The notes: generated from the sequence alone by a model not told the origin. DNA of 64,000 nt from Alphaproteobacteria bacterium (GCA_017539265.1 JAFYHG010000027.1:13886-77885); one strand, 5' to 3'; numbered from the stretch's first letter, positions 8,165 to 63,651 are shown. Numbers and translations are program-made.

Positions 8165-9475
8165 ATGACAAAAGATATCCATACAATCAAATGCCCCAAA
8201 TGTGGAGAAGTTTTTCCGATTGATGAAAGCGGTTACGCCGCTATTGCCAGCCAAATTCGCGATAATGAGTTCCGAAAGGCTTTGGAAGAACGCTTTGAAC
8301 AAATGCAAGCGGATAAAGAAAGTGCCCTGAAACTTGCTCAGGTAACCGCTGACGCTGATAAAGAAAAATCTGTTTCTGCATTAAATCATCAAATTGATAT
8401 TTTAAATCAACAGCTAAAAACGATTAAAAAGGAAAGCGAACTTGATAAAGAGCAATCCATTGCGGAGTATAAACAGCAAATTACGGAGCTTCAGGCTCAA
8501 ATCAAGGCCAATGAAAAGGATAAAACCATTGCTGTTAATGCCGCACTGGAAGAAAATAAAGACACTTTGGTTGAAAAAGATAAAGAAATTATTGAATTGA
8601 AAGGGAAACTCCAAGGCGCCGAAAAGGATATCAAGCTTCAAGAGAAATCTTTAAAAGAAAAATACGAGATGGAATTGAAAAATAAGGACGAACTGATTGA
8701 TTATTATAAAGATTTAAAGATAAAGATGTCCACAAAAATGCTTGGGGAGACACTTGAACAGCACTGTGAAATCGCATTTAATATCATCCGTGCAACAGCT
8801 TTCCCAAATGCTTACTTTGAAAAAGACAATGACTCCAGAACAGGCAGTAAGGGGGACTATATTTTCAAAGAATCCACCGAGGATGGCATAGAATTCCTAT
8901 CCATTATGTTTGAAATGAAAAACGAAATGGATACAACAGCAACAAAACATAAAAATGAACATTTTTTCAAAGAATTAGATAAAGACCGTCAAGAAAAAGG
9001 ATGTGAATATGCCGTTTTGGTCTCTTTGCTAGAGTCGGATAGTGAGTTATATAACACGGGAATTGTTGATGTTTCCTACAAATATCCGAAAATGTATGTT
9101 ATTCGTCCACAATTCTTTATTCCTATAATCACTTTGCTCCGTAATACTTCCATGAATTCTGTTCAGTATCGCCGACAACTGGTCGAGTATAGAAACCAAA
9201 ATATAGATATTTCAAACTTTGAGGCTAAAATAGAAGATTTCAGAGACAAAATTAAGAAAAATTATCGTCTAGCAGGAGAGAGATTTAAAGCAGCAATTGA
9301 AGAAATTGACAAAAGTATAACACACTTGCAAAAAATTAAAGATGCCTTGCTTTCCACAGAAAGTAACTTACGCCTTGCTAACGATAAAGCTCAAGATTTT
9401 ACCGTCAAGAAACTCATTAAGGACAATCCGACAATGCAAAAGAAATTTGCAGAACTTAATCCACCAGAGGAATGA
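8165..9475 (+). CDS. DUF2130-like protein: N-terminal CxxC zinc ribbon, long coiled coil, and a C-terminal region with a D ... E-x-K (PD-(D/E)xK-like) arrangement.
   Basis: [29 protein letters not shown] matches the DUF2130 N-terminus as I remember it. Heptad-rich K/E middle. KGDYIF ... IMFEMKNE near the C-terminus. Confidence 0.6.
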
Positions 9476-10967: not shown

Positions 10968-12788
10968 ATGTTAAAAAATGTTATTTTTTTGAATAAAATT
11001 AAACATTTTGAAATACTTGCCTGGAATGACGTTTTCAAAAACATTGATTTTATAAGGCTATTAGGGATAATGTTAAATAATGTATGTTTTTTAACATTTT
11101 TCATTTTTCTGGACTTTTGGATGATTTTATTGTATACTGCGACCAGTTTTTTAAATTTTCATGGATTCAGTATGCGAATAAACCGTCCAAATTATTTTAG
11201 CGAGATTGACGAGCAAGATGTCCTCTTCTATGGAGAGGAAGGACGCTTTCGGAGAATATCCCTAGATTTCTGGAAAGATGTTTACCCAAATATATTGCAA
11301 GCGTACTTATCAACCAAACAACCCGAAAATGATTTTAAGGACACTTTTGTAGACCCGTCATTTTATCCGATAGGTCCAGAACATGCACTACGTTTATGCA
11401 CGAGGGTGTTTACAGATATCTTTCCTTCGTGTTTCGAAACAAATTACTCGGAACTTCCTGATAGACCTGGTAAGTTATATGAAAAGGATATAGAGCCACT
11501 TAAAGACAAAAAAGGGCTTGTTGGGGCTATTGCGAGAACATGGAACAAAATAGGCAAATATGGAGACTATCATTTTTTACAGCTCCTAGAGATTGTTAGC
11601 ACATTTAAAAATGGTATTGTAAAACTTACGGATAAACTGCCAGACCCACTATATGCTGATTTTGTAAAAGAAATACGTGCAGTCTTTTATAAGTACGCAG
11701 ATTTATTGAATAATAAAGAAATCAGAAAAGAAATTGATAAAATCGTTTTCTTAAAGCATCCGAATGCAACTAAAAAGATTAAGTCCCCAAGAGGATATCG
11801 GATAGTTAAGGCAGAATACGCCCGTTGTGAACTTATTTTTGAAAATGTGGATTTTGGTAGGAAAGAACAGGAGCTTTTCTGGAACATACTAACGATTCCA
11901 GAGGGTTTTGTTCCAATGGAAACAGCTTTTTTCCTTAATTGTAGATTTTCTGCAACCTATACATGTCCTACAAAAGTAATTCGTCCCAGGGCTTTGTTCA
12001 GATACTGCATATTTGAAAAAGAATTTGCCCCAGCTCCATATATCCAGCAATCATGGAGATTTATAAACTGTACAATAAAAAACAAATTTAATTTCAGAAA
12101 AACAGTGCTACGCAGAGGGCTTTTCTTTCATGGATGTGTGTTTGAGTCGGAAAGTTCATTCATATTTGATAATTCACGTGGCAACCGTTGGGTTCCGAAA
12201 GATTACCCATATAATAAACTTTATTTTACAGACACAATATTTGGCGGTGATTTCTCCATAATGAATACAAGTTTAAGTCATACTGAATTTGTATTGAAGA
12301 ATGTCGCATTTTTCAAAACATTCCGCTTTGATGAAGTCAGATTAAGTGATAAGTGCACTTTTGAACGTATTAGTTTTGCTTTGGGAAGTACTCCGCAAAT
12401 AATACAATGTAAACAAACTTTTGTTGAAATGCTCCAATTACACGGATATCATGCGGAACTTGATTCACTGGGATTATTAAGTAAAAATTCTAACAAAAAA
12501 AGAGCTCAACGCTTTTATACATCATGGCTTCATCCAATCGAAGCAGCCGAATTTCTTTCCAAAAGCATAAGTTGGTTAGCCAAGAAAAGACAAGCCGACA
12601 GATTAAAGAAAACAAAGACTTCTATACCATTTGTTGGGGAAAAGAAAAATATTTTATACCCCAAGACAGCCTTACAGGCATTCCGTTCACAAGATTGGAA
12701 TAAGTTAAAAGAACTCTGTAAAAAATATGGAGTTGGTGAGAAAGAAAAACCCAAATCTGCCGACATTAGCATATTTGATGTAGATTAA
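10968..12788 (+). CDS. Large hypothetical protein (start uncertain; hydrophobic N-terminus).
   Basis: Long ORF. Its last ~95 nt are duplicated downstream of the abi gene. Confidence 0.45.
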   Translation: MLKNVIFLNKIKHFEILAWNDVFKNIDFIRLLGIMLNNVCFLTFFIFLDFWMILLYTATSFLNFHGFSMRINRPNYFSEIDEQDVLFYGEEGRFRRISLDFWKDVYPNILQAYLSTKQPENDFKDTFVDPSFYPIGPEHALRLCTRVFTDIFPSCFETNYSELPDRPGKLYEKDIEPLKDKKGLVGAIARTWNKIGKYGDYHFLQLLEIVSTFKNGIVKLTDKLPDPLYADFVKEIRAVFYKYADLLNNKEIRKEIDKIVFLKHPNATKKIKSPRGYRIVKAEYARCELIFENVDFGRKEQELFWNILTIPEGFVPMETAFFLNCRFSATYTCPTKVIRPRALFRYCIFEKEFAPAPYIQQSWRFINCTIKNKFNFRKTVLRRGLFFHGCVFESESSFIFDNSRGNRWVPKDYPYNKLYFTDTIFGGDFSIMNTSLSHTEFVLKNVAFFKTFRFDEVRLSDKCTFERISFALGSTPQIIQCKQTFVEMLQLHGYHAELDSLGLLSKNSNKKRAQRFYTSWLHPIEAAEFLSKSISWLAKKRQADRLKKTKTSIPFVGEKKNILYPKTALQAFRSQDWNKLKELCKKYGVGEKEKPKSADISIFDVD

Positions 12789-12790
12789 AC
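12695..12790. repeat. Direct repeat copy 1 (96 bp), including the 3' end of the 10968-12788 gene.
   Basis: 95/96 identical to 13985-14080 by direct reading. Confidence 0.9.
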
Positions 12791-12839
12791 GGTTTATCTT
12801 ATTGAAAATAAATACGATATAAAATTAATTAAAAAAGTG

Positions 12840-12868
12840 TTGACTCATAATTTTTTTTATATTATAAT
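12840..12868 (+). promoter_or_regulatory. Consensus sigma70 promoter TTGACT-17-TATAAT upstream of the abi gene.
   Basis: TTGACT at 12840-12845, 17-nt spacer, TATAAT at 12863-12868. Confidence 0.5.
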
Positions 12869-12914
12869 ATACATAACAAGCCCTTCCCGCTAAAGGCAGA
12901 GATGTACAGCGAAT

Positions 12915-13979
12915 ATGGAAGGGCATTATTTTAAGGTTATAGAAATGCAGAGAGTCAAATTTTTTAAAGAATCAAAAACCCCTGATGAGCTTATAGAACA
13001 ACTTGTTAAACGTGGTATGGTAATTACAAATCGTGATTATGCTAAAGATATTTTATTTAAAATTAATTATTATCGTTTATCAGGATATTGGTTTAAATTT
13101 CAAAATAAATGGTTAAAGCAATTGCCAGTTCCAGAAAACGCAACCAGTGAAGAAATTGATGAACTGAATAATCAATTTATCAGACGGGTATCCTTTGAAA
13201 ATATTGTTGATATATACAGATTTGATAGTAAATTACGTTCTTTATGCATAGATGCACTGGAGAAAATAGAAATTGGAATTAGCTCTGTTCTCTGTAATCA
13301 TATGTGCCAAAAGTATGGCGGATATTGGTTTTTAAATAAACAGCTTGTGCAAAAAGTCACAAAAAAAACTAAAGAAGGAGAAAAAGTTTTATTTAATCAT
13401 GATTTATTAATGGAAGACATTGATAAGTTATTAGCAAAAAATAAACGAACAAAATGTATCAAAAATTTTCGAGTAAAATATACTGATGAATATCCTCCTT
13501 ACTGGATATTAGCTCAATTGGTAACATTTGGAACTTTATCGAAAATTTATTCTTCTTTACCCCCTGTAGATAAAAAAGAAATTGCAAAGATGCTAGGTGT
13601 AAATGATGAACTGTTATCACACAGCCTCACATTACTGTCTTATATTAGAAATATTTGTGCTCATTATGCCCGCTTATGGGATAATGATAATAGTGTTGTC
13701 CCTTTGAATATTAATTTTAATCGCATAGAACCCAACAGTATTTTTAATTATCGCTTTCATACAAATGGAAAGAATAGTGCAACATTCTTCCCAGTATTTT
13801 ATTTAATAACCTTATACTTATATATGCTTTATCCGAAATCTAAATGGTGCTCCATTGTTGAACAAAAAATTAAAGAATATGAGAAATTAACAGATTCATT
13901 GGTTTCTTTTAAGACCATGGGATTTTTAGATACGTGGAGAGAATTACCATTATTCATAAGAATGCTCAAGAATGCGTAA
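12915..13979 (+). CDS. Abi_2 family (AbiD/AbiF-like) abortive infection protein.
   Basis: N-terminus ... TPDELIEQLVKRGMVITNRDYAKDILFKINYYRLSGYWF is a classic Abi_2 start. Later, IRNICAHYARLWDN gives the R-x4-H (HEPN) motif of this family. Confidence 0.8.
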   Translation: MEGHYFKVIEMQRVKFFKESKTPDELIEQLVKRGMVITNRDYAKDILFKINYYRLSGYWFKFQNKWLKQLPVPENATSEEIDELNNQFIRRVSFENIVDIYRFDSKLRSLCIDALEKIEIGISSVLCNHMCQKYGGYWFLNKQLVQKVTKKTKEGEKVLFNHDLLMEDIDKLLAKNKRTKCIKNFRVKYTDEYPPYWILAQLVTFGTLSKIYSSLPPVDKKEIAKMLGVNDELLSHSLTLLSYIRNICAHYARLWDNDNSVVPLNINFNRIEPNSIFNYRFHTNGKNSATFFPVFYLITLYLYMLYPKSKWCSIVEQKIKEYEKLTDSLVSFKTMGFLDTWRELPLFIRMLKNA

Positions 13980-13984
13980 CTTAA

Positions 13985-14080
13985 TTGGAATAACTTAAAA
14001 GAACTCTGTAAAAAATATGGAGTTGGTGAGAAAGAAAAACCCAAATCTGCCGACATTAGCATATTTGATGTAGATTAAAC
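13985..14080. repeat. Direct repeat copy 2 (96 bp).
   Basis: Matches 12695-12790 with one mismatch. Confidence 0.9.
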
Positions 14081-14596
14081 GATTCCCTTATGTAAAATTA
14101 GGTCGAACATAATGTCCCAAGCTGTTTGTCCTTTCTTATTTTTTAAATTGGTTAAGTCTGCTCCATAGTCCAAGAAGGCATAAAGAAGTTTCTTTTTACG
14201 GTGGATGTTTTTATCAAAAAGGACTCTCATTAAAGCTGTATTGCCCCAAATGTCCTGTGTATCTAACTCCGCCCCTGAATCCACAAATAACCAGGGCACT
14301 ATGGCTTCACATTGTCCTTCAACCGCACGCATTAGAGGAGTTTCCCCGTGTTGGTTGGTCTTGTTCACATCTCCGCCCATGTTTATTAAGGCTTCAATTC
14401 TTTCCCCATCTTTAAAATAATTCATAGCGTATAAAAATGGAGTCATGCCAATCGGGGGCATAGGTCTGTTTAAGTCTGCTCCTTTCTTTACATAGTATTG
14501 TATGAGTTTCAAATTCCTTTCTTTAATGGCTTTTAATAGGTCTTCCTGTATATTCATAGTCTCTCCTTTTAAATTATTTATCCCTACTGATTCCAC
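14075..14596 (-). CDS. Ankyrin-repeat protein.
   Basis: ANK consensus stretches (GMTPFLYAMN ... GETPLMRAVEGQ ... GNTALMRVL ... GADLN). Confidence 0.7.
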   Translation of the reverse strand: MESVGINNLKGETMNIQEDLLKAIKERNLKLIQYYVKKGADLNRPMPPIGMTPFLYAMNYFKDGERIEALINMGGDVNKTNQHGETPLMRAVEGQCEAIVPWLFVDSGAELDTQDIWGNTALMRVLFDKNIHRKKKLLYAFLDYGADLTNLKNKKGQTAWDIMFDLILHKGIV

Positions 14597-15653: not shown

Positions 15654-16244
15654 ATGATTTATGGGTATTGCAGATGTTCAACTGATAAGCAGACGGTATC
15701 ACATCAACACTATGAAGTTCAAAAGTTCGCAGCCACCAATGGTGTTCAAGTTGATGAATGGATTGAGGAAACCATAAGTTCAAGAAAACCACTTGCCAAA
15801 AGAAAGTTGGGTGAGTTATTAAATAATATGAAAGAAGGAGATGTTCTGATAACCCCCGAAATCTCCCGTATTGGTAGAAGCCTATTAGAAATAATGTCTA
15901 TTTTACAGACTTGTTTAGAAAAGAACTGCCAGATATGGACAATTAAAGAGAACTACCGCTTGGGTGCTGATATCCAAAGCAAGGTGCTAGCGTTTGCGTT
16001 TGGCTTAGCAGCCGAAATCGAGCGTAATCTTATTTCTCAACGCACAAAGGCAAGTTTGGAATCATTGAAAAAGAATGGTAAAAAACTCGGTCGTCCGTTT
16101 GGGGCTAAAAATAAGTCCCTGAAACTGTCCAAAAATCGCACCAGAATCAACAGTCTTCTTGCTAAAGGCTTGCCCAAGGCTCAAATTGCCCGCATTTTCG
16201 GTGTGGATAAGATGACTATGTATAGGTTCTTAAAGGGAGAATGA
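15654..16244 (+). CDS. Serine recombinase (resolvase/invertase family).
   Basis: GYCRCSTDKQ catalytic N-terminus with the serine nucleophile. C-terminal HTH (KAQIARIFGVDKMTMYRFL). Confidence 0.8.
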   Translation: MIYGYCRCSTDKQTVSHQHYEVQKFAATNGVQVDEWIEETISSRKPLAKRKLGELLNNMKEGDVLITPEISRIGRSLLEIMSILQTCLEKNCQIWTIKENYRLGADIQSKVLAFAFGLAAEIERNLISQRTKASLESLKKNGKKLGRPFGAKNKSLKLSKNRTRINSLLAKGLPKAQIARIFGVDKMTMYRFLKGE

Positions 16245-46926: not shown

Positions 46927-47430
46927 TTATTGCCGCACCCGTGCTGAGTCTGTTTGTTTATTCAATTGAGTCAACCGTGCGCTTAAGATTTTTCGTGGAA
47001 CCCTTGGGAATTGATGACGTTTTTTCCATTCTGTCAGATACTTTTTAGCCTTTTCTCCATCCAATCTTTCCCCGTTTTTATAGACATATTTTGTATCTAA
47101 CCGACCGTCTTCACGATATGATATATACGGGCCGTCTTTTTGCCCATTTTTATAAAAGCACTTTTCGCCTAACTGACCATTTTCATAATATGTTATATAC
47201 AAGCCATTTTTTTGCCCATCTTGATAGGCACACTTTTTCCACAATCGACCATTTTCGCAATAATATTCCCATACCCCCTCTTCTTTTCCGTCCGCATAGG
47301 TTCCTTTTTCACATAGCCTGCCACTCGGGTAATAGCCTTCATAATCCCCTTGTTTAACACCATTTTTATCAACAACATAGACAGCCTTAATTATTTTGCC
47401 ATCGGCGTGATATTCAATTTTTGCTTTCAT
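46927..47430 (-). CDS. MORN/YwqK-type repeat protein.
   Basis: Repeated G..EG.W.YYYENG.L ... G..DG pattern. Confidence 0.65.
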   Translation of the reverse strand: MKAKIEYHADGKIIKAVYVVDKNGVKQGDYEGYYPSGRLCEKGTYADGKEEGVWEYYCENGRLWKKCAYQDGQKNGLYITYYENGQLGEKCFYKNGQKDGPYISYREDGRLDTKYVYKNGERLDGEKAKKYLTEWKKRHQFPRVPRKILSARLTQLNKQTDSARVRQ

Positions 47431-47671
47431 AAGGAACCTCCTTGCCTATAAATACCCATGATTGTTGTATCATGGATTATATTTTTCGTCAAGCGACTTT
47501 GCAAAATAGTTGCATTTTTTATAAAATGGTGAGGGGTATCTTGCCGAACGCGAGCTAAATTTGCTAATTTTAATTCAAAATGGTAGTATTATGAATTAGT
47601 ATTTTCAAAACTTGATTTTTGTTGCATGCTATGATATAAATTAGAACAGTTGCAAGAAAAGGAGAACAAAT

Positions 47672-47977
47672 ATGAAGCAGATTATTACAGAAATTTTAAA
47701 AGAGATATCAATATTTATTTTATCTGTGATTATTTCTTCAATATTTCTTCTATGTGCCCAAATCATCCTTGGTATCTTTGGGGAATTAGGAATGTTGAAT
47801 TTCTTGGAATCTTCAGGAAAAACGGGGCAGTTTACGGAAGTCTTTTGTATGGTATCGATAATTTCTTTGGCGCTTTTCCTGGTAATAGGTCTTCCTAATA
47901 AAAAACATAAAATATTTTTCAGAGATATATGTATCATTTGTTTATTTTATTATTTTTATATGTTGGCCTGTACTTAA
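47672..47977 (+). CDS. Small hydrophobic protein (101 aa), hypothetical.
   Basis: ORF with 3 TM-like segments in an AT-rich region. Weak call. Confidence 0.25.
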   Translation: MKQIITEILKEISIFILSVIISSIFLLCAQIILGIFGELGMLNFLESSGKTGQFTEVFCMVSIISLALFLVIGLPNKKHKIFFRDICIICLFYYFYMLACT

Positions 47978-48030
47978 ATCACCTCTAAAAGTTCGAATGT
48001 TTCAGAGGCTACTAAAAAGCACTAAAAATA

Positions 48031-48076
48031 TGAAATGTAATAAAATCAGCTACTTTTGCGATGATGAGTTCGATTG
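48031..48076. repeat. 46-bp direct repeat, copy 1 (TGAAATGTAATAAAATCAGCTACTTTTGCGATGATGAGTTCGATTG).
   Basis: 45/46 identical to 49716-49761. Confidence 0.85.
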
Positions 48077-48106
48077 TTGGCAAAAATTCGGGTTGTAATT
48101 AAAATT

Positions 48107-48763
48107 TTAGTCTCTGCCTGAATTAGCATTAGGGGAATCAAAAGAGCGAAATAGGGTCTTTTTTTGAACACCATCAATTGTTTTCAAAATATAAAGGTTA
48201 GTATTGGGGTTTAATTTAACAAATTGACCTACCCGTTCATCAATAAATAAAGTCGCACTCGGATCATTGGCCGCATACCCGTCCGGCACCCTATCATATT
48301 CTTGATAATGCGGATAAAATCTTGAGTTAATAAATCCCAGTTGTGGCCAAAACCAACACATGGCCCCAGCGGACATTCCCGCCATTACAACTCCCTTTTC
48401 ATAGGCTTCTTTTAAAACCTCATCAAAACCGAACTGCCTCATTTTAGTCATCATAGTCGGGACATGACCAGGGCCAACATATACTGCATCACTTGAAAGA
48501 ACTTTCTCGCGGATGAGTTCTTTTGAAGGGGCGTTGTCCCGGGTAAGAATAACATCCGTTTGACACCCTAATTCTTCCCCATAACGTTTATGAAATTGAT
48601 TTACAAATTGATTAAAGTTGGCAACCGGATACTCTGGTATTTCAAGGGCCATAGGTAAAAATAAAATCCTTGGTCGTTCCTTATTTAACAGACGAACCAA
48701 AGTTTGGTCTATTTTCTTATCTTCTTGAAAACAACCATCGCTGATTGCATAAATTCTTCTCAT
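48107..48763 (-). CDS. Peptidase S51 family (PepE/cyanophycinase-like).
   Basis: GxSAG nucleophile context (VVMAGMSAGAM). Confidence 0.6.
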   Translation of the reverse strand: MRRIYAISDGCFQEDKKIDQTLVRLLNKERPRILFLPMALEIPEYPVANFNQFVNQFHKRYGEELGCQTDVILTRDNAPSKELIREKVLSSDAVYVGPGHVPTMMTKMRQFGFDEVLKEAYEKGVVMAGMSAGAMCWFWPQLGFINSRFYPHYQEYDRVPDGYAANDPSATLFIDERVGQFVKLNPNTNLYILKTIDGVQKKTLFRSFDSPNANSGRD

Positions 48764-48840
48764 CTAAAATCCTTTCAATAGCCAGAATTATACTTATTAT
48801 AGCATCAAGCAAGTATTTTGTCAATTTAATATATTTAAAA

Positions 48841-48951
48841 GGTGCTGGGATTGTTCGCTATCGCTCATCCCTCGTTCCTCGGGACCGCCTATGGCGTCAA
48901 CTGCGCTATCGCTCCGTTCCGAACATGGATTCGTCCACCTCAGGCACCCTC
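48841..48951 (+). repeat. Repeat family member A (~110 bp) starting with a tRNA-Lys-like GTGCTGGGATT. Followed by a terminator-like hairpin.
   Basis: Shares blocks TTCGCTATCGCTC / CGTTCCTCGGGACCGCCTATGGCGTC / CCGAACATGG with 49776-49902 and, inverted, with 58313-58412. Confidence 0.7.
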
Positions 48952-49052
48952 TATTTATAAAAAAACACCCCACACGGGGGCGTTTTTTTATAAATGGTGA
49001 GGGATACCTTGCACAACGCGAGCTAAATAATGCTGGCATAAAATTTATTCAA

Positions 49053-49577
49053 CTATTGCATAGAAGCGAACATAACAAAGGAAAGGAGTCCAGAAATTGA
49101 TATTCCCAAAAGAACAGAAATGACAATCTTGAACTTTTCTTTTTTGATAAAATTTAGAAGTTTATAGTTAAGTTTCGCATATACCATTCCTAACAAATAC
49201 GATAGAAAAGAAAAACTCAATAAAAAATGCCCTTCGTGTTTTACTAATTGTTGATAGGGAAAAAGGTTCAATACATTACCTATTGCTGTTATTATAGCTA
49301 AAACCATTACCATCAAAATAAATTCGGATAATTTTGATTTTAAAATTATTCTGAAAGAAAAGTATAATAACAAACATAAAAATATAAAAATTATTGAATT
49401 TAATCCAAAATAAATAAGAAAATATAAGGGAAGCACGAATAATATTCCCCAAAAGTATATGAGAGAGATAGGAGAAAGAAGAAACAATAAAAGATCTAAT
49501 GGAAATACAAATCCCCGTAAAATATTAATCATTATATTTCGAAGGCGATTGTTATCTTTTTTTATTTTATTTTTCAC
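49053..49577 (-). CDS. Polytopic membrane protein (174 aa), hypothetical.
   Basis: 4-5 TM segments. Confidence 0.4.
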   Translation of the reverse strand: MKNKIKKDNNRLRNIMINILRGFVFPLDLLLFLLSPISLIYFWGILFVLPLYFLIYFGLNSIIFIFLCLLLYFSFRIILKSKLSEFILMVMVLAIITAIGNVLNLFPYQQLVKHEGHFLLSFSFLSYLLGMVYAKLNYKLLNFIKKEKFKIVISVLLGISISGLLSFVMFASMQ

Positions 49578-49715
49578 GGAATCCTCCTCTTTTTAAATAC
49601 TGGAAATATTCTACGTAAAATATAATCTAAATGCAAATTTTTTCTGAGATTTCTTCGTAAATAATTCAAAAAAATGACATCAGCGACACATTATACCAAG
49701 AAGGTTGGAAAAATG

Positions 49716-49761
49716 TGAAATGTAATAAAATCAGCTACTTTTGAGATGATGAGTTCGATTG
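49716..49761. repeat. 46-bp direct repeat, copy 2.
   Basis: See copy 1. Confidence 0.85.
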
Positions 49762-49775
49762 CCCGCGAAAATAGG

Positions 49776-49902
49776 GTGTGCTGGGATTATTCGCTTCGCT
49801 CACCCACTCATTTTACTCGGGGCTGTCTCGCATTGCTCGACATTACGTCCGTGTGCCAAAGCACACTCCCGTCCGAACAGGGTTCTTATCCCTAGCACCT
49901 CC
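49776..49902 (+). repeat. Repeat family member B.
   Basis: Starts GTGCTGGGATTATTCGCTTCGCTCAC, ends CCGAACAGGGTTCTTATCCCTAGCACCTCC. Followed by the same hairpin (CACCCCACACGGGGGCG + T-run) seen after member A. Confidence 0.65.
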
Positions 49903-49946
49903 AATTTTATAAAAAAACACCCCACACGGGGGCGTTTTTTTATAAA

Positions 49947-50022
49947 TGGTGAGCGTGCTGGGATTCGAACCCAGGGCCACCTGATTAAAAGTCAGGTGCT
50001 CTACCAGCTGAGCTACACACTC
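49947..50022 (-). tRNA. tRNA-Lys (anticodon UUU).
   Basis: Reverse complement GAGTGTGTAGCTCAGCTGGTAGAGCACCTGACTTTTAATCAGGTGGCCCTGGGTTCGAATCCCAGCACGCTCACCA. Anticodon loop CTTTTAA. 76 nt with CCA. Confidence 0.9.
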
Positions 50023-58202: not shown

Positions 58203-58277
58203 TGGGCTGTCGCCAAGTGGTAAGGCAACGGTTTTTGATACCGTCATTCGTTGGTTCGAATCCAGCCAGCCCAACCA
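58203..58277 (+). tRNA. tRNA-Gln (anticodon UUG).
   Basis: TGGGCTGTCGCCAAGTGGTAAGGCAACGGTTTTTGATACCGTCATTCGTTGGTTCGAATCCAGCCAGCCCAACCA. Anticodon stem ACGGT/ACCGT, loop TTTTGAT. CCA encoded. Confidence 0.85.
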
Positions 58278-58280
58278 AGA

Positions 58281-58310
58281 AAAATCCCCCGTTTATCGGG
58301 GGTATTTTTA
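58281..58310 (+). terminator. Rho-independent terminator (CCCCCG TTTAT CGGGGG + T-run).
   Basis: Direct reading. Confidence 0.7.
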
Positions 58311-58312
58311 TT

Positions 58313-58412
58313 GGTTGGGTGGTTAGGATAAGAACCAATGTTCGGTGAGCGTAGCGAACGACGCCGTAGGCGGTCCCGAAGGAACGAGCGATAGCGAGCA
58401 ATCAGCCAGCCC
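58313..58412 (-). repeat. Repeat family member C (inverted relative to A/B), ending in a tRNA-Gln-like CAGCCAGCCC.
   Basis: Reverse complement aligns with member A (GCTCGCTATCGCTC ... GGGACCGCCTACGGCGTC ... CCGAACATTGGTTCTTATCC). Confidence 0.7.
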
Positions 58413-58585
58413 ATTTGCACAAAAGTCCGTGTACAAGCGCGTAAAAAATGCTAAATTTTTGCCTTATACGGACTAACAACATAAAATTATCCTTTATTTT
58501 CAATACAAGCGAGGTATCTAAAATTTATCCTGAGAAAATTTAACTTGTATTTTCTTGAAAGATGTATTAATATGCATGCACTTTT

Positions 58586-60475
58586 ATGTATAAAAAGGAA
58601 AAACTATGGATAAAGAATATTACCAATTTATCAATCCGATTTAAAAGTGTTAAGGACTATAAGATGCAAATTCATAAACTTCTTTCAAAAAAAGATATCA
58701 CAAACTTTTTAGCTTACTTTTTAGGATTTTACCTTATCATATTGTTAGCTCGTTTTTTCACAACGGCTGGTCATTTGAATTTATTTATGTGGCAAGGATA
58801 TCAACTTTTATTTGCACTTGCTTTTGCATCTAGTTCTGTCCTGTTTAAGTATCAAAAGAAGCACACCTTGCTTTTTTTATTTGTTGCTTTACTGTGGGGG
58901 GCATCTTGTTTGTGCAAAATAGGTGCCAATATGGTGTTAAACGAACGTGAAATTGTTCAAACAATCGGTATAGGGACAATATTTTATACACAGATAACTT
59001 TGCTGTTGTATTTTTTCTCCTTAATCAAAAATAGAGTATTAGCCCGTATTTTAAGGTGGTTAAGCCTTATATTATTTGCTCTTTTATTTTTGCCGCCACT
59101 TTTGGTAATTGGGTATTATATTGTCAGCAACGGACGTATGCTTTCAAGCAACATATTATTAACCATATTTCAAACAAATATTGGCGAGATTTACGCTTAT
59201 CTGGCAGAGCAAAATATCGTTCTTTGGATTGTTTCAGTTATTGCCATTTTGGTTTTGACATTTATAATTTCTTATTTATTAAGCACCATTAAAATAAATT
59301 TTCATTTTCGAAAATCTTTTGTTTTCAACACTATACTTGTCATATATTTGACTTTTTGTATCGTTCCTAAATTAAGTTCAAGTTTTGTGGTAAATATGTT
59401 TATTCGTGTTTCAGATACATTAGCCGAATATAAATCGTACGCTAAGTTGAGCGCACAACGCAATCTAAGATTAACAGAACTTCAAAAGATTTTAGATTCA
59501 AATAAAGATGCACAGCTTCATGTTTTAGTTGTTGGTGAATCGACCGTGCGGCATCACCTTGCTGCCTTTGGTTATAAAAAACCGACAACACCATGGTTGT
59601 CAAAAATAGTGCAAGAAAATAAGAATACAATAATATATCCGAAAGCTTATTCCAGTAACATACAAACAGTTATGTCCGTTCAATTTGCCTTAACTTCGCA
59701 AAATCAGTATAATGCTACTTCTCTTCAAGATGCTTATACTCTAACAGAAGTTGCTTCTGCTTCCGATTATGAAACATATTGGATATCTAATCAAATGCAC
59801 TTTGAGGCCTATGACACTCCTATCAGTGCCATTTCTAATGGTGCAGATCATCGGGTGTTTATTAACGATTATTACGGTAGTAAATTACTTACAACTTACT
59901 ATGATGAAAAATTGGCTGATCAGTTCCCTAAAATCAATCCGAATAAAAAGGTACTTATTATTTTTCATTTAATGGGGTGCCACAACCTTTATATCGATCG
60001 GTATCCTTCTTCTTTCAAAACATTTGATGGCGATAATGCGCGGGTAAATACCTATGATAACTGTATCTTGTATAATGACTACGTTCTATCTCTTTTGTAT
60101 CAAAAAGCCGCCGAAAACGAGAACTTTATGTCGTTTACATTTCTTTCTGACCATGGAGAAGATCCGGATAAAGGATTAACTCACGATTATTCGAAATTTA
60201 CGTGGAACATGTCTCACATTCCGTTCGTAACGATTTTTTCCGAAAAATATGCAGCGGCACACCCTAAGATTATTGATACCTTAAAAGCTAATAAGGATAA
60301 ATATTGGACGAGTGATTTATTATTTGACACTATGACACATATTTTGGGAATTAACAATATTCCAAATAGCAATCCCCGGTTTGACATTTCAAAAAAAGAA
60401 TATTCAATGAATAAGGATAATTTGACGATTATAGAAGGTACTTATAATATCAAAGATGATGACAGTGATAATTAA
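58586..60475 (+). CDS. Phosphoethanolamine transferase (EptA/sulfatase superfamily) with an N-terminal 5-TM domain.
   Basis: LHVLVVGESTVRHHLAAFGYKKPTTPWL matches the EptA catalytic-Thr region. DHGE metal-binding motif (LSDHGED). Confidence 0.7.
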   Translation: MYKKEKLWIKNITNLSIRFKSVKDYKMQIHKLLSKKDITNFLAYFLGFYLIILLARFFTTAGHLNLFMWQGYQLLFALAFASSSVLFKYQKKHTLLFLFVALLWGASCLCKIGANMVLNEREIVQTIGIGTIFYTQITLLLYFFSLIKNRVLARILRWLSLILFALLFLPPLLVIGYYIVSNGRMLSSNILLTIFQTNIGEIYAYLAEQNIVLWIVSVIAILVLTFIISYLLSTIKINFHFRKSFVFNTILVIYLTFCIVPKLSSSFVVNMFIRVSDTLAEYKSYAKLSAQRNLRLTELQKILDSNKDAQLHVLVVGESTVRHHLAAFGYKKPTTPWLSKIVQENKNTIIYPKAYSSNIQTVMSVQFALTSQNQYNATSLQDAYTLTEVASASDYETYWISNQMHFEAYDTPISAISNGADHRVFINDYYGSKLLTTYYDEKLADQFPKINPNKKVLIIFHLMGCHNLYIDRYPSSFKTFDGDNARVNTYDNCILYNDYVLSLLYQKAAENENFMSFTFLSDHGEDPDKGLTHDYSKFTWNMSHIPFVTIFSEKYAAAHPKIIDTLKANKDKYWTSDLLFDTMTHILGINNIPNSNPRFDISKKEYSMNKDNLTIIEGTYNIKDDDSDN

Positions 60476-60668
60476 AATTTAATTCTATGTTATATTCTAA
60501 TGGCCTGATTTTAATCCACAAAAAGTATTTTTACAACTTTAATTTCAGTCCCTGGATTACCAAATGTCCCCAACCAAATCAGATCAGTCGTCAGCGAACG
60601 CCTAGAGGAAGAAATAGTTGACAAAAAATGACATCTGTGATATACTTCCCCCATAGGAAGGAAAATTT

Positions 60669-61613
60669 ATGTATCTAACAGAGCAACAATCTAAGGATAA
60701 GGGCCTTGTTTGTGAATTAGCCGGACAAGCGTTGGGTGTTCCGGTAACCCATTTACAGCAATTGGGGGGGTGTAGTTCCTATAACTATGAAGTTAACCAT
60801 CTTTATATCCTTAAACTACCCGGCGAGCGTACATTTTCTAACAGTTGGGTTTTACAAGAACGGTATATGCCTGTTTTACAAAAGCAGTTAACATACCAAA
60901 TTCCTCAACCACAAACAAAAGTTGTCTGGACAAAGGGGGAAACACAATCTTTTATAGCTATGAGCTATCCCAAGATAGAGGGTAATTGTATTGGAGATAC
61001 CTTTGTGTTTGCTCAAAAAGATTATTCATTTAAAGTCCGTTTTTTTGAACAATTGTCTGATGCTGCAAGTCAGCTACATAATGTCCCTTTATCAGAACTT
61101 CCTTTTAGAATTCCGACAAAAGAAGAGGAATTTCAGGAATATTTCTTCAGGAATACGATTTCCAAAGGATCTGCCCATTTGAAAAGAAAAATAATACAAG
61201 CACTGTTTCATGACCCCCTTTTTGGTTTAGATAAGTCGGCAGATAGCACAGGTATATTAACTCATTCTGACTTACATTCGGGTAACGTCCTCTTTAATGA
61301 TAAAAATGAACTGATTGGTCTTTTGGATTTTGATACTTTAGGGAGCGGGGATCGTTTTTGGGAATTTCGGCCAAAGCTTTATGCCGGCCCATCAGATACT
61401 GATTTATTTAGGGAAATTTATTCTGCAAGGACAGGTCATCGAGTTGATTATAAGGACATCTATGCTATGCATCAACTTTTTTATTTTGGGCAGCTTTTGA
61501 AGAGCGCATTTATGACTTATGATGCTCTCTCGCCGACGCAAAATATCAAAAGGTTAAAGAAAATTAAAGCTAAAATGATGAGGCAAATTCAGCGCGCCTT
61601 TAGATCACGCTAA
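60669..61613 (+). CDS. APH/choline-kinase-family phosphotransferase.
   Basis: HSDLHSGNVLFN ... LLDFDTLG (Brenner and DFD-like motifs). Confidence 0.65.
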   Translation: MYLTEQQSKDKGLVCELAGQALGVPVTHLQQLGGCSSYNYEVNHLYILKLPGERTFSNSWVLQERYMPVLQKQLTYQIPQPQTKVVWTKGETQSFIAMSYPKIEGNCIGDTFVFAQKDYSFKVRFFEQLSDAASQLHNVPLSELPFRIPTKEEEFQEYFFRNTISKGSAHLKRKIIQALFHDPLFGLDKSADSTGILTHSDLHSGNVLFNDKNELIGLLDFDTLGSGDRFWEFRPKLYAGPSDTDLFREIYSARTGHRVDYKDIYAMHQLFYFGQLLKSAFMTYDALSPTQNIKRLKKIKAKMMRQIQRAFRSR

Positions 61614-61670
61614 TTTTATTTTTCAACATCAATTTCAACACAAAAATAGTCCGTGTGTTGCAAGATCTCT

Positions 61671-61712
61671 CCAACCAATAAAGAAACCCCGTTTATCGCG
61701 GCTTTTTTATTA
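61671..61712. repeat. Imperfect copy of the tRNA-Gln 3' end plus terminator (att-like).
   Basis: CCAACCAATAAAGAAACCCCGTTTATCGCGGCTTTTTTATT versus CCAACCAAGAAAAATCCCCCGTTTATCGGGGGTATTTTTATT at 58270-58312. Confidence 0.55.
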
Positions 61713-63371
61713 TTTTTTAATAAAAGGTAGGGGTTTCGTTCGACAAGCGTTAAACAAATCATAGCGCTGATTATAAACGGATGTCTTGATGGCCAACAAT
61801 CCTAATAAAGAGTGGAATAAATTATCATGAGAATAAGCTTTTTTTTCTGCAGATAGTTTTAAACAATTATAATCAATGTAATCCCATTTTTTCATATTTT
61901 CATTCATCCAAATCAGCATTGGAACACTTTTTTGCTCAACCGGTGCGATCCTATAAGGCATACCATGCAAAAAGATATTATTTTCCCCTAAAGATTCTCC
62001 ATGGTCGGATACATAGATAACACTCGATTCAAATTGAGGGTATTTTTTTGCAATATCAATTGTTTGTGAAATAATATAGTCTGTATACAAAATCGTATTA
62101 TCATAAGTATTGATTATTTGATTAAGAGAGCAATCTTGAATATCTGCTGTATCGCATGTCGGCAGAAATTTTTTAAACTCATCGGGATACCTTTGATGGT
62201 ATGTTGGGCCATGAGATCCTTGTGTATGTAGCACAATTAACGTATTTTGTTGAATCTTGGGAAAAATATCATTTAATTCTTCCAATAAAACCTCATCCCA
62301 GCAATAATCCCCATGGCAATATACTGGATGGTTTGTTTTTTGCATATTTTTTAAATCTTTAACCCGCTTACAAACCCCTTTACATCCGTCATCATTTTCT
62401 CTCCAGATAACATGGTAACCGGCTTTTTGGGCTAAATCCAATAAATTTTCGGTGAATTTTGCATCTGTCACATCAAACTTTTTTCGATTCATATGAGAAA
62501 ACATACAAGGAACAGATACGGCGGTTGCTGTTCCGCAGGCGGTTACATCCTTAAAATAGGCTATATCCTGTTTTTCAAGTAGCGGATTTGTTTTTCGTTC
62601 GTACCCGTCCAAAGAAAAATTGCCAGCCCGAGCAGTTTCCCCCACAATAAATACAACAACCGTATACATTTTCTTATCTTTCGAATAATCCAAATTTTGC
62701 GGATTTTGATCTAATTCTACGAATTTTCTTTTGGCTAACCTTATTCTTCTAACATAACTGATGATGCCGGCTGTAAAATTCACAACATTTATTATACCTT
62801 TAACTTCTCTGTGATTGCGGCCATAGGCGGCATACTCTTTATATGATCCAAATCCCAAAATTCCGACAATCAATATACTAATTAAAAAGTTTTTAAGCCT
62901 GGCTTTAAATTCATCTTTAAACGTTCCATATTGCACAGAGGTTATCAATACTAAAACGGATGGCAGTATTCCGGTAATAAGTACCCAAAAAAATAATGAT
63001 AGCGTGATTAACTCTGTTGCCTCTCGAACATTTGTTTCCATAACATTTTGAATCATATGTTTATCAATAAAAATGCCATAGTTAAACATCATAAAGTTTG
63101 TAAAACTGCAACTTAAAAGTAAAGCAATGATAAAAGGCTTACCGATTATTTTAACACATATCAAATTGAAAAGTAAAAATAGCGGAATGGCGATGAAAAA
63201 GAATAAAGAAGCAGAGAAACAAAAAATCCGAAAACTGGTGATATCCACATTATGGTAAGTAAAGCGCCAAAATGAGAGATTTAGAATAGTAGAAAAATAT
63301 AACGTTAAAATTATAATTAACGTTCTGCTTTTGATTTTTAAATTTTTCATCATTCTACTCCATACCATCAA
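61710..63371 (-). CDS. Phosphoethanolamine transferase (EptA/MCR-like), second paralog.
   Basis: VVFIVGETARAGNFSLDGYERKTNPLL ... CGTATAVSVPCMFS is the EptA/MCR signature. HGESLGENN motif. Confidence 0.8.
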   Translation of the reverse strand: MMVWSRMMKNLKIKSRTLIIILTLYFSTILNLSFWRFTYHNVDITSFRIFCFSASLFFFIAIPLFLLFNLICVKIIGKPFIIALLLSCSFTNFMMFNYGIFIDKHMIQNVMETNVREATELITLSLFFWVLITGILPSVLVLITSVQYGTFKDEFKARLKNFLISILIVGILGFGSYKEYAAYGRNHREVKGIINVVNFTAGIISYVRRIRLAKRKFVELDQNPQNLDYSKDKKMYTVVVFIVGETARAGNFSLDGYERKTNPLLEKQDIAYFKDVTACGTATAVSVPCMFSHMNRKKFDVTDAKFTENLLDLAQKAGYHVIWRENDDGCKGVCKRVKDLKNMQKTNHPVYCHGDYCWDEVLLEELNDIFPKIQQNTLIVLHTQGSHGPTYHQRYPDEFKKFLPTCDTADIQDCSLNQIINTYDNTILYTDYIISQTIDIAKKYPQFESSVIYVSDHGESLGENNIFLHGMPYRIAPVEQKSVPMLIWMNENMKKWDYIDYNCLKLSAEKKAYSHDNLFHSLLGLLAIKTSVYNQRYDLFNACRTKPLPFIKK

Positions 63372-63651
63372 ACAGGACGTTTATTATATACAGATTGTTT
63401 TTTTTATCAACATATTTTTTCACTCTTTTTAAGGCGCCCATTAATATCGTGGATTTGAATTATAAATCCGTTTAATACGAGGGATAACTCATTTGTAAAG
63501 ATCCTTTCTTTTGGCAAAATTATAGCAAAAAAAGTCTATTTTTTCAAGTTTTTTAATTCCCGTATTGCATGGTTCAAAAAAGTTGATTTCCCTATTTTTT
63601 TATGATACGTTACAAATAATCATCAATAATTAGATTTTAGGAGAGCAACAA

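Follow-up and report, generated by a model that had tools for sequence, protein, structure and literature searches.

Downstream of a tRNA-Gln gene in a 64,000-nt stretch of DNA from an Alphaproteobacteria bacterium (GCA_017539265.1, JAFYHG010000027.1:13886-77885; hereafter the window, whose coordinates are used throughout, features being on the plus strand unless stated otherwise) lies a small islet of two genes, encoding a phosphoethanolamine transferase and a small-molecule kinase, followed by a second, EptA-type transferase gene. We consider it reasonably probable that positions 58278-61677 are a cassette that was inserted at the 3' end of the tRNA gene and that carries no integrase. The observations behind this reading are repeats at the two ends of the islet, conserved arm sequences, the recurrence of these arms next to tRNA-matched cores at other loci, the identities of the cargo genes and a gene neighbourhood that is not conserved. 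A sequence-only reading of this DNA had described an island of about 3.4 kb bounded by attachment (att) sites. A probable insertion at the tRNA-Gln 3' end, with att-like repeats at its borders, is supported, but the islet is not one simple unit, as it contains a relic junction (60547-60576).

The tRNA-Gln(UUG) gene (58203-58277, with encoded CCA) was found by ARAGORN (ttg) and by the Rfam tRNA model (63.4 bits). It has its own promoter, and a terminator scan placed a strong terminator with a 6-bp GC stem at 58286-58302, 3' of the gene, confirming both features as initially described. The last 7 nt of the tRNA, CCAACCA, form the core that is repeated further on. Positions 58271-58308 align without gaps with positions 61671-61708, at a spacing of 3400 nt, with 31/38 identical positions (82%), the longest identical blocks being CCAACCAA (8 nt) and CCCCGTTTATCG (12 nt; loop and stem). 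Seven nt of this repeat (CCAACCA) belong to the tRNA, the remainder being terminator. The next-best same-strand match within the window was 23/38, and the best matches from 200 dinucleotide-preserving shuffles had a mean of 23.1 (standard deviation 0.84) and a maximum of 26/38; the match of about 34/42 originally reported between the tRNA 3' end with its terminator and a distal copy is therefore real. Could the similarity result from chance, or from convergence of two intrinsic terminators? The matched stretch is mostly a GC stem and a T-run, and both sites are plausible terminators. However, the observed 31/38 lies well above the shuffle maximum, the 12-mer that covers loop and stem is identical, and the distal copy is preceded by a conserved right arm and the CCAACCA core, so that we regard this explanation as extremely improbable.

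The distal copy (61671-61708), a pseudo tRNA 3' end (CCAACCA) followed by a degenerate terminator, would represent attR. It folds into a weak hairpin (-8.1 kcal/mol, z -2.5) and also flanks the convergent EptA gene on its 3' side. Described in the terms used for Islander-type islands, the islet has an intact tRNA at one end (58203-58277), whereas the other end bears a direct repeat of the tRNA 3' part, with only 7-8 nt in the tRNA itself; its genes are the transferase and the kinase only, and no integrase lies inside.

Directly 5' of the distal CCAACCA is a 23-nt motif, AGTCCGTGTGTTGCAAGATCTCT (61648-61670), which we call the right arm and which is found at cassette ends in the window and on two other contigs, L009 and L015 (consensus AGTCCGTGTnnnGCAAGAyCTCy). 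L009 is contig JAZKXR010000006.1 of NCBI assembly GCA_045611705.1, where the ortholog of the islet kinase is 46% identical. A loosened form of the motif was located in the window at 61652 (Gln) and, on the minus strand, at 49020 and 47552 (Lys), on L009 at 17479 and 18459 (Tyr), and on L015 at 7281. One unrelated match to this looser form, at 9340-9358 of the window, has no tRNA-matched core. At all junctions for which the tRNA is present on the contig, the 7 nt that follow the right arm are the last 7 nt of the upstream tRNA: CCAACCA (Gln), CTCACCA (Lys, twice) and TCCACCA (Tyr, twice). A further core, CCAGCCA, would belong to a tRNA off the contig. Because the right arm found at the equivalent junctions precedes it, the distal copy is, judging by its sequence context, more than a terminator and belongs to a conserved frame, and the suggestion that the tRNA-like copy is just a shared terminator motif fails.

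The clearest case of this frame is found on L009 (16714-18520), where two tandem cassettes with near-identical modules of ~180 nt lie 3' of tRNA-Tyr. The tRNA is followed by a terminator, a spacer of ~150 nt, a left arm (described below) and an open reading frame (ORF) for a 116-aa membrane protein; next come the right arm and TCCACCA, after which the terminator, spacer and left arm are repeated almost base for base; last come a 203-aa ORF, the right arm and TCCACCA, beyond which the sequence differs. The 203-aa protein shows 39-44% translated similarity to a MORN-repeat gene of the window. That gene (46927-47430) lies directly past the final att copy of the tRNA-Lys array, and three 72-nt tandem coding repeats within it (47067-47282, 61-71% identical) are part of the gene, not a separate feature.

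The tRNA-Lys array itself (47527-49953, minus strand; tRNA-Lys at 49947-50022) was recognized by its repeats and right arms. A 48-nt repeat consisting of CTCACCA and the terminator is present in two 100% identical copies (48954-49001 and 49906-49953) and in a third, partial copy (47512-47560), each copy being preceded by a right arm of the form AGCTCGCGTnnnGCAAGrTAyCC. The genes framed here are a 174-aa membrane ORF (49053-49577), an S51 peptidase (48107-48763) and a 101-aa ORF, and a 64-nt repeat (48024-48087 and 49709-49772; 91% identical) replaces the left arm. Scanning metagenome contigs with AGTCCGTGTNNNGCAAGA yielded, among the matches listed, L103 as the only real example, nearly all others being chance matches. 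L103 carries a compact array (module of ~140 nt) whose cargo is a 106-aa Cys-rich protein with a hydrophobic, signal-peptide-like N-terminus. On contig L014 (11843-12173), a tRNA-Gly(ccc) gene and its terminator are followed after ~165 nt by a second copy of the last 19 nt of the tRNA plus terminator, with neither cargo in between nor an arm motif. The framed genes differ from array to array. Next to the tRNA, only the P' part of the module is present, and the far end keeps just the right arm with the core; on L009, complete modules are located between cargo genes.

At the tRNA-proximal side of the Gln islet lies a palindrome (58264-58325), identified as an inverted repeat, in which the last 14 nt of tRNA-Gln and their inverted copy, TTGGTTGGGTGG, enclose the terminator (58286-58302); the whole folds into one long hairpin (-38.1 kcal/mol, z -7.55) and would be part of attL. 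It is followed by a GC-rich P'-arm element of ~110 nt (58303-58421), singled out earlier as 'repeat member C' and present three times in the window, twice 3' of tRNA-Lys-type terminators. In the three-copy alignment, 52 columns are invariant and mean column identity is 68%; the far end of the element repeats the tRNA-Gln 3' strand (AATCAGCCAGCCCA). Then comes the left arm (58424-58510, ~85 nt), a hairpin AGTCCGTGT-N33-ATACGGACT with a conserved tail (..AAAATTATCCTTTATTTTCAATA), which folds at -16.8 kcal/mol (z -3.8). A pattern scan located six copies of it in four sources, namely the window, L009, L015 and L103; in their alignment 30 columns are invariant and the mean identity is 70%. Within the proposed module, the left arm would take the form AGTCCGTGT-N33-ACACGGACT plus tail.

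Repeats that lie directly 3' of a tRNA gene, each of them closing with a duplicate of its 3' end, are known from E. coli tyrT, the RtT repeats. These are not known to contain cargo genes or arm motifs. The GC-rich element (58307-58421) aligns over the full length of the Rfam RtT model (RF00391), with a score (21.5 bits, E 0.028 in a search of 151 nt) that is below the gathering score of 45 bits; no RtT match was obtained for one of the Lys-linked sister copies searched alone, nor in a broader search that covered both. We therefore rejected membership of the element in RtT; a connection between RtT-type tRNA-linked repeats and the cassette arms is possible. A related explanation of the whole islet is that unequal crossing-over duplicated the tRNA end with its terminator and that genes were interposed later, without any mobility system. 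Such static repeats would fit the full-length, sub-threshold RtT alignment, the homology of the proximal and distal Gln terminators and the L014 tRNA-Gly duplicate, which has no gene between its copies. Yet they would leave unexplained why the same arms are common to different tRNA loci and to genomes so distant that kinase orthologs are 46% identical, and why different cargo lies within the arms each time; the RtT score and the unmatched sister copies also speak against them. We find this explanation very unlikely.

The half-module layout is as expected for circles that recombine repeatedly at the core of the tRNA end. In such a mechanism, a cassette would be a circle consisting of cargo plus an attP-like module, with the order right arm, 7-nt core (nnnACCA), terminator palindrome, variable spacer (in the Gln module, the GC-rich element) and left arm. 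tRNA-Gln would be the integration target, and the module would be divided when its core recombines site-specifically with the tRNA end: beside the intact tRNA, the terminator, spacer and left arm would remain as attL, and the right arm with the pseudo-tRNA end would come to lie at the far side as attR. Repeated insertion would give tandem arrays. The recombinase would act in trans and might be a tyrosine integrase; the 9-mer AGTCCGTGT, which is repeated three times, is our guess for a putative arm-type binding site. As we found neither an integrase nor an empty site, we only infer circular intermediates, a recombinase and present-day mobility, and our confidence in the specific recombinase mechanism is low.

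The module could instead be a MITE (miniature inverted-repeat transposable element) whose ends are the 10-bp inverted repeats TAGTCCGTGT ... ACACGGACTA and which inserted repeatedly into DNA between genes, the apparent cargo being resident genes. The two module ends indeed form a perfect inverted repeat, the module is compact in L103 (~140 nt) and no recombinase is linked to it. However, a core that matches the tRNA of the array (Gln, Lys, Tyr) is not expected of a generic MITE, which would also leave unexplained why half-modules stand precisely at the two array ends, with only the P' half at the tRNA and only the right arm plus core on the far side. Moreover, no free-standing complete copies were seen outside tRNA-headed arrays in the 64-kb window, and the cargo genes deviate in GC content and have non-syntenic homologs. 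A MITE is thus quite unlikely.

If the cassette reading is extended to all the arrays, the loci may belong to a dedicated tRNA-3'-end cassette system of uncultured Alphaproteobacteria, served by a single recombinase acting in trans whose core requirement would be little beyond ACCA; we put this forward as a tentative possibility, on which we would not yet rely. By analogy to integrons, the module of this system may be a structured element of ~150-300 nt that is used at tRNA-Gln, tRNA-Lys and tRNA-Tyr and at the CCAGCCA core, and the system may shuffle envelope-modifying and other accessory genes. These Alphaproteobacteria come largely from assemblies of human-gut metagenomes.

Between the two cargo genes of the Gln islet lies what looks like a former internal junction (60547-60576), where CCAACCA occurs for the third time (60570-60576), with a degenerate right arm, CAGTCCCTGGATTACCAAATGTCC, 5' of it at the expected spacing. 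By manual count, the relic arm matches the Gln right arm at 14/23 positions, and the usual AATTT lead-in is kept. Both outer arms are intact (58424-58474 and 61648-61670). The Gln islet is best read, from this sequence arrangement, as two accreted cassettes that would have fused by decay of the junction and that now form one two-gene unit.

The first cargo gene (58664-60475; ORF from 58586; 603 aa in the gene call, 629 aa as ORF) encodes a sulfatase-fold membrane protein (Pfam Sulfatase, 1.7e-32). It had been called EptA-like, but it is closer to EptC/CptA: its best NCBIfam models are CptA models, with scores well below their cutoffs (NF007933, 152.6 bits, cutoff 404; NF012179, 134.8 bits, cutoff 900), and its best match in the PDB is E. 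coli EptC (5zzu, 9.5e-30). Aligned with 5zzu, the protein keeps GES, the aligned Thr, HLxGxH, YDN and SDHGE. A 100% identical NCBI protein (MBR6412734.1) is named 'phosphoethanolamine transferase', and identity to the second transferase of the window is 27%. E. coli EptC transfers phosphoethanolamine onto a heptose I that has been phosphorylated beforehand by WaaP (PMC6358824). The islet enzyme, for which EptC is the closest relative of solved structure despite a CptA score of 152.6 against 404 bits, probably adds phosphoethanolamine to a phosphate or sugar of the lipopolysaccharide (LPS) core. Of two homologs, one (74% identical) has a GT5 gene on one side and RNase E on the other, and the second (69% identical) ends tail-to-tail against the L014 tRNA-Gly(ccc). 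No kinase or EptA gene is near either of them.

The second cargo gene (60669-61613, 314 aa) encodes an APH(2'')-like small-molecule kinase (Pfam PF01636 APH, 1e-12; 48.8 bits against a gathering score of 23.2) with HxDxxxxN and DFD motifs. A promoter scan found a near-consensus promoter, TTGACA-17-TATACT with a TG, in front of the gene (60618-60646, 11/12), and a 69% identical homolog that stands in another context (L007/L008) keeps the same promoter and leader. The family found comprises 30 proteins, none of which is named. In 28 relatives, HSDLHSGN and DFD are invariant (H199, D201, N206 and D220-F221-D222), and a profile built from them matches APH(2'')-Ia in the PDB (1.6e-13). An AlphaFold model of the kinase (predicted local distance difference test, pLDDT, 89) gave 50 listed Foldseek matches in the PDB, all of them APH(2''), with template-modelling (TM) scores of 0.50-0.64 and 14-18% identity. 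By profile and fold, then, the kinase is closest to APH(2''), whose HxDxxxxN and DFD motifs it shares, but identity is low and the NCBIfam APH(2'') models score 25 bits against cutoffs of 475-600. The earlier label of APH/choline-kinase-like stands for its first half, supported by PF01636 and by the APH(2'') structures. A choline/ethanolamine kinase (LicA type) did not appear among the Pfam, NCBIfam or PDB profile results nor among the 50 listed Foldseek matches, and this identity was rejected for want of any matching model or structure.

The gene contexts of the kinase relatives differ from that of the islet. The 69% homolog lies at a contig end and is followed by NADAR and deaminase genes. 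Homologs of 44-46% identity lie after a eukaryotic-type phosphomannomutase (PMM)/HAD gene and before ProRS, in core-gene surroundings. Such PMM-kinase-ProRS loci are found at L010 9190-11850 and L009 9175-10945, and L010-L012 contain two tandem kinase paralogs. Because the kinase of the relatives adjoins a PMM-type gene, its sequence context suggests a sugar or metabolite as substrate rather than an antibiotic.

Are the two cargo genes functionally coupled? Homologs of the transferase and of the kinase are never adjacent in relatives, and their contexts are unrelated. Because the homologs are never neighbours, the adjacency of the two genes in the islet looks like accretion, neither an operon nor a coupled pathway. 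The kinase had been presented as an unusual partner of the transferase, but this pairing is not conserved: in relatives, the kinase is beside a PMM-type gene or alone, with its own promoter. A WaaP/EptC-like pair was likewise rejected, since homologs of the two do not co-occur and the kinase family usually adjoins a PMM-type gene. Nor were the same genes seen at the same place in relatives, an outcome that would have undermined the island as first proposed; their homologs are in unrelated contexts, no tRNA-Gln locus of a relative being among the contigs recovered.

Beyond attR, the EptA-type lipid A phosphoethanolamine transferase is encoded on the minus strand (61710-63350; ORF to 63371; 546 aa in the gene call, 553 aa as ORF). 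The gene is convergent, tail-to-tail with the kinase gene, and not divergent as had been stated. The protein contains EptA_B_N (PF08019, 2.7e-40) and Sulfatase (PF00884, 1.7e-66) domains, and its translation shows GETARA and CGTATAVSVPCMFS, as the sequence-only reading said. Like the EptA/MCR proteins, it has these signatures and matches the domain model NF028537 (602.6 bits, above the cutoff of 500); unlike them, it stays below the EptA equivalog cutoff and below the cutoffs of MCR-1 to MCR-13, the best being an MCR-3-related model (479.7 bits against 1075). We found 7950 homologs, thousands of which are 50-60% identical and come from many phyla. From these sequence comparisons, the second transferase is an ordinary, generic chromosomal-type lipid A EptA. 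The link to mobile polymyxin resistance that had been drawn from it is weak, the protein being below every MCR cutoff and its gene outside the recognisable cassette. A closely related copy of the gene is present on L015/L016 (5441-7159 against 61705-63422 of the window; 87% DNA identity), where the similarity stops exactly at the borders of the gene. L016 and the contig of the window derive from one sample, and the copy may represent a second strain or a paralog. As in the window, a right arm and a pseudo-tRNA end, here GTCCCCAGCCA, meet the gene tail-to-tail; its neighbourhood is different, with an S51 peptidase on one side and a GNAT acetyltransferase cassette on the other.

The low GC content of the region does not stop at attR. 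GC is 42-50% in the upstream flank and 28-39% from 58.4 to 63.7 kb, a tract that covers all three genes; it recovers gradually by ~66.5 kb and is ~45% near coordinate 16000 of L001. This composition supports a foreign origin of the whole low-GC tract, not specifically of the 3.4-kb unit. It would also fit a larger, horizontally acquired LPS-modification island of ~5.3 kb or more next to tRNA-Gln, which would include both transferases and the kinase and perhaps extend to ~66.5 kb, the repeat at 61671 being an internal relic. The 87% identical EptA copy found elsewhere, bordered exactly at the gene and tail-to-tail with a right arm, points in the same direction, as do degenerate left-arm-like sequences 3' of the terminal att copies in L015 and L009. 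Within 8 kb past EptA, however, there is neither a right arm nor an arm-bearing CCAACCA, the larger island would again be without an integrase, and it would be compatible with the serial accretion of cassettes and not opposed to it. As a distinct explanation, we find it unlikely. Within the cassette reading, EptA may be an older cassette whose arms were lost, because left-arm-like remnants follow the terminal att copies in L015 and L009.

Several points weigh against an integrase-less cassette at tRNA-Gln. We found no recombinase, integrase or other, within the arrays or adjacent to them. Nor did we retrieve an unoccupied tRNA-Gln site or an islet-free strain in a search that consisted of one contig scan with the flanking NUDIX protein; the scan found a single 78% relative (L004), with no tRNA beside NUDIX. 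The conspecific contigs L001, L002 and L003, from three samples, share the arrangement of the window, and exact-protein look-ups with the NUDIX gene and the kinase gave contigs that have this same arrangement or are broken inside tRNA-Gln. Identity within the tRNA, 7-8 nt, is short for a classical tRNA att site, and the likeness of the distal and proximal terminators (82% over 38 nt) is not required by attB/attP logic. The attP-like module had no meaningful match in phage, plasmid or IMG/VR collections, the one IMG/VR contig that matched the left-arm pattern doing so by chance, inside a coding region. The metagenome scan added one further example only, among the matches listed. Composition neither singles out the 3.4-kb unit nor marks a border at 61712, as GC stays low past attR. 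Finally, the inner junction has decayed more than the outer arms, which requires an extra step, the fusion of two cassettes.

The breaks in tRNA-Gln fall at position 1 of L142 (58262 in the window), of L003 (58208) and of L002 (~58239); they occur in assemblies from two other samples, and L142 and L003 overlap by 55 nt. They fit a branch in the assembly graph, which could reflect strain variation or merely the conserved tRNA.

A resolvase gene of the window (15654-16244), which encodes a small serine recombinase with Resolvase and HTH_7 domains, was considered as the cassette recombinase and rejected, no arm motifs being found around the gene. A 54% identical homolog is located at L004 9033-9602, directly upstream of NUDIX, where the window has tRNA-Gln. 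Elsewhere in the window, an Abi_2 (abortive-infection-like) gene (12915-13979) is flanked by 101-nt direct repeats that are 98% identical (12694-14084) and duplicate the 3' end of an upstream 606-aa ORF, which resembles an insertion into a gene end.

If the cassette reading is true, an uncultured alphaproteobacterial lineage, known largely from gut metagenomes, would swap single accessory genes by means of tiny, integrase-less units that dock at the very 3' end of several tRNA genes. The cargo seen so far includes LPS phosphoethanolamine transferases, kinases, acetyltransferases, peptidases and small proteins that are membrane-bound or putatively secreted. Such units would escape standard island finders, which need an integrase or a long tRNA fragment. 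There is no specific sign here of a new mobile polymyxin-resistance determinant, because EptA is a generic chromosomal-type enzyme.

Among known systems, cis-mobilizable elements (CIMEs) are flanked by att sites, lack an integrase and accrete in tandem at tRNA 3' ends, newer ones joining at the att site (PMC5704250). The Gln islet resembles them in keeping attL- and attR-like ends without integration or transfer genes, and in its tandem arrangement at a tRNA 3' end. However, CIMEs are described as decayed integrative and conjugative elements (ICEs) or integrative and mobilizable elements (IMEs) of many kb, whereas the units here measure 0.7-3.4 kb, are mostly single-gene and share an apparently intact attP-like module across tRNAs and genomes. 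Neither the 64-kb window nor L001 showed an ICE or IME partner. The conserved module suggests a designed cassette rather than debris.

In tRNA-targeted genomic islands, the gene is regenerated on integration, and part of the tRNA remains as a copy at the distal border (Islander, PMC4383910), and the tycheposon islands of Prochlorococcus arise by serial integration at tRNA genes, with partial tRNAs (bioRxiv 10.1101/2020.12.28.424599). The tRNA site, the partial tRNA copy, the outward displacement of older elements and the niche cargo are shared with the present units. In contrast, such islands and tycheposons carry a tyrosine recombinase and often replication genes, both absent here, and the displaced fragment in our case is 7-8 nt plus a terminator, with one arm family serving several tRNA identities.

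The units also recall integron cassettes, which are small, recombinase-free (promoter-poor or single-gene) and arrayed in tandem at one anchor, and the module recalls attC in being structured, imperfectly palindromic and bounded by inverted core repeats. They differ from integrons in the lack of IntI and attI and in a module devoid of GTTRRRY/RYYYAAC cores, and no integrase is present in the Pfam listings of genes around the arrays. Moreover, the anchor is a tRNA 3' end, the half-module break falls in the middle of the module, cargo orientation varies and at least the kinase has its own promoter. All together, we group the Gln islet with tRNA-targeted, integrase-less (CIME-like) islets, the closest known systems being CIMEs and serially integrated tRNA-anchored islands and, by analogy only, integron cassettes; what is distinctive here is the very small size of the units, the very short tRNA fragment, the use of one arm family at several tRNAs and the absence of a linked recombinase.

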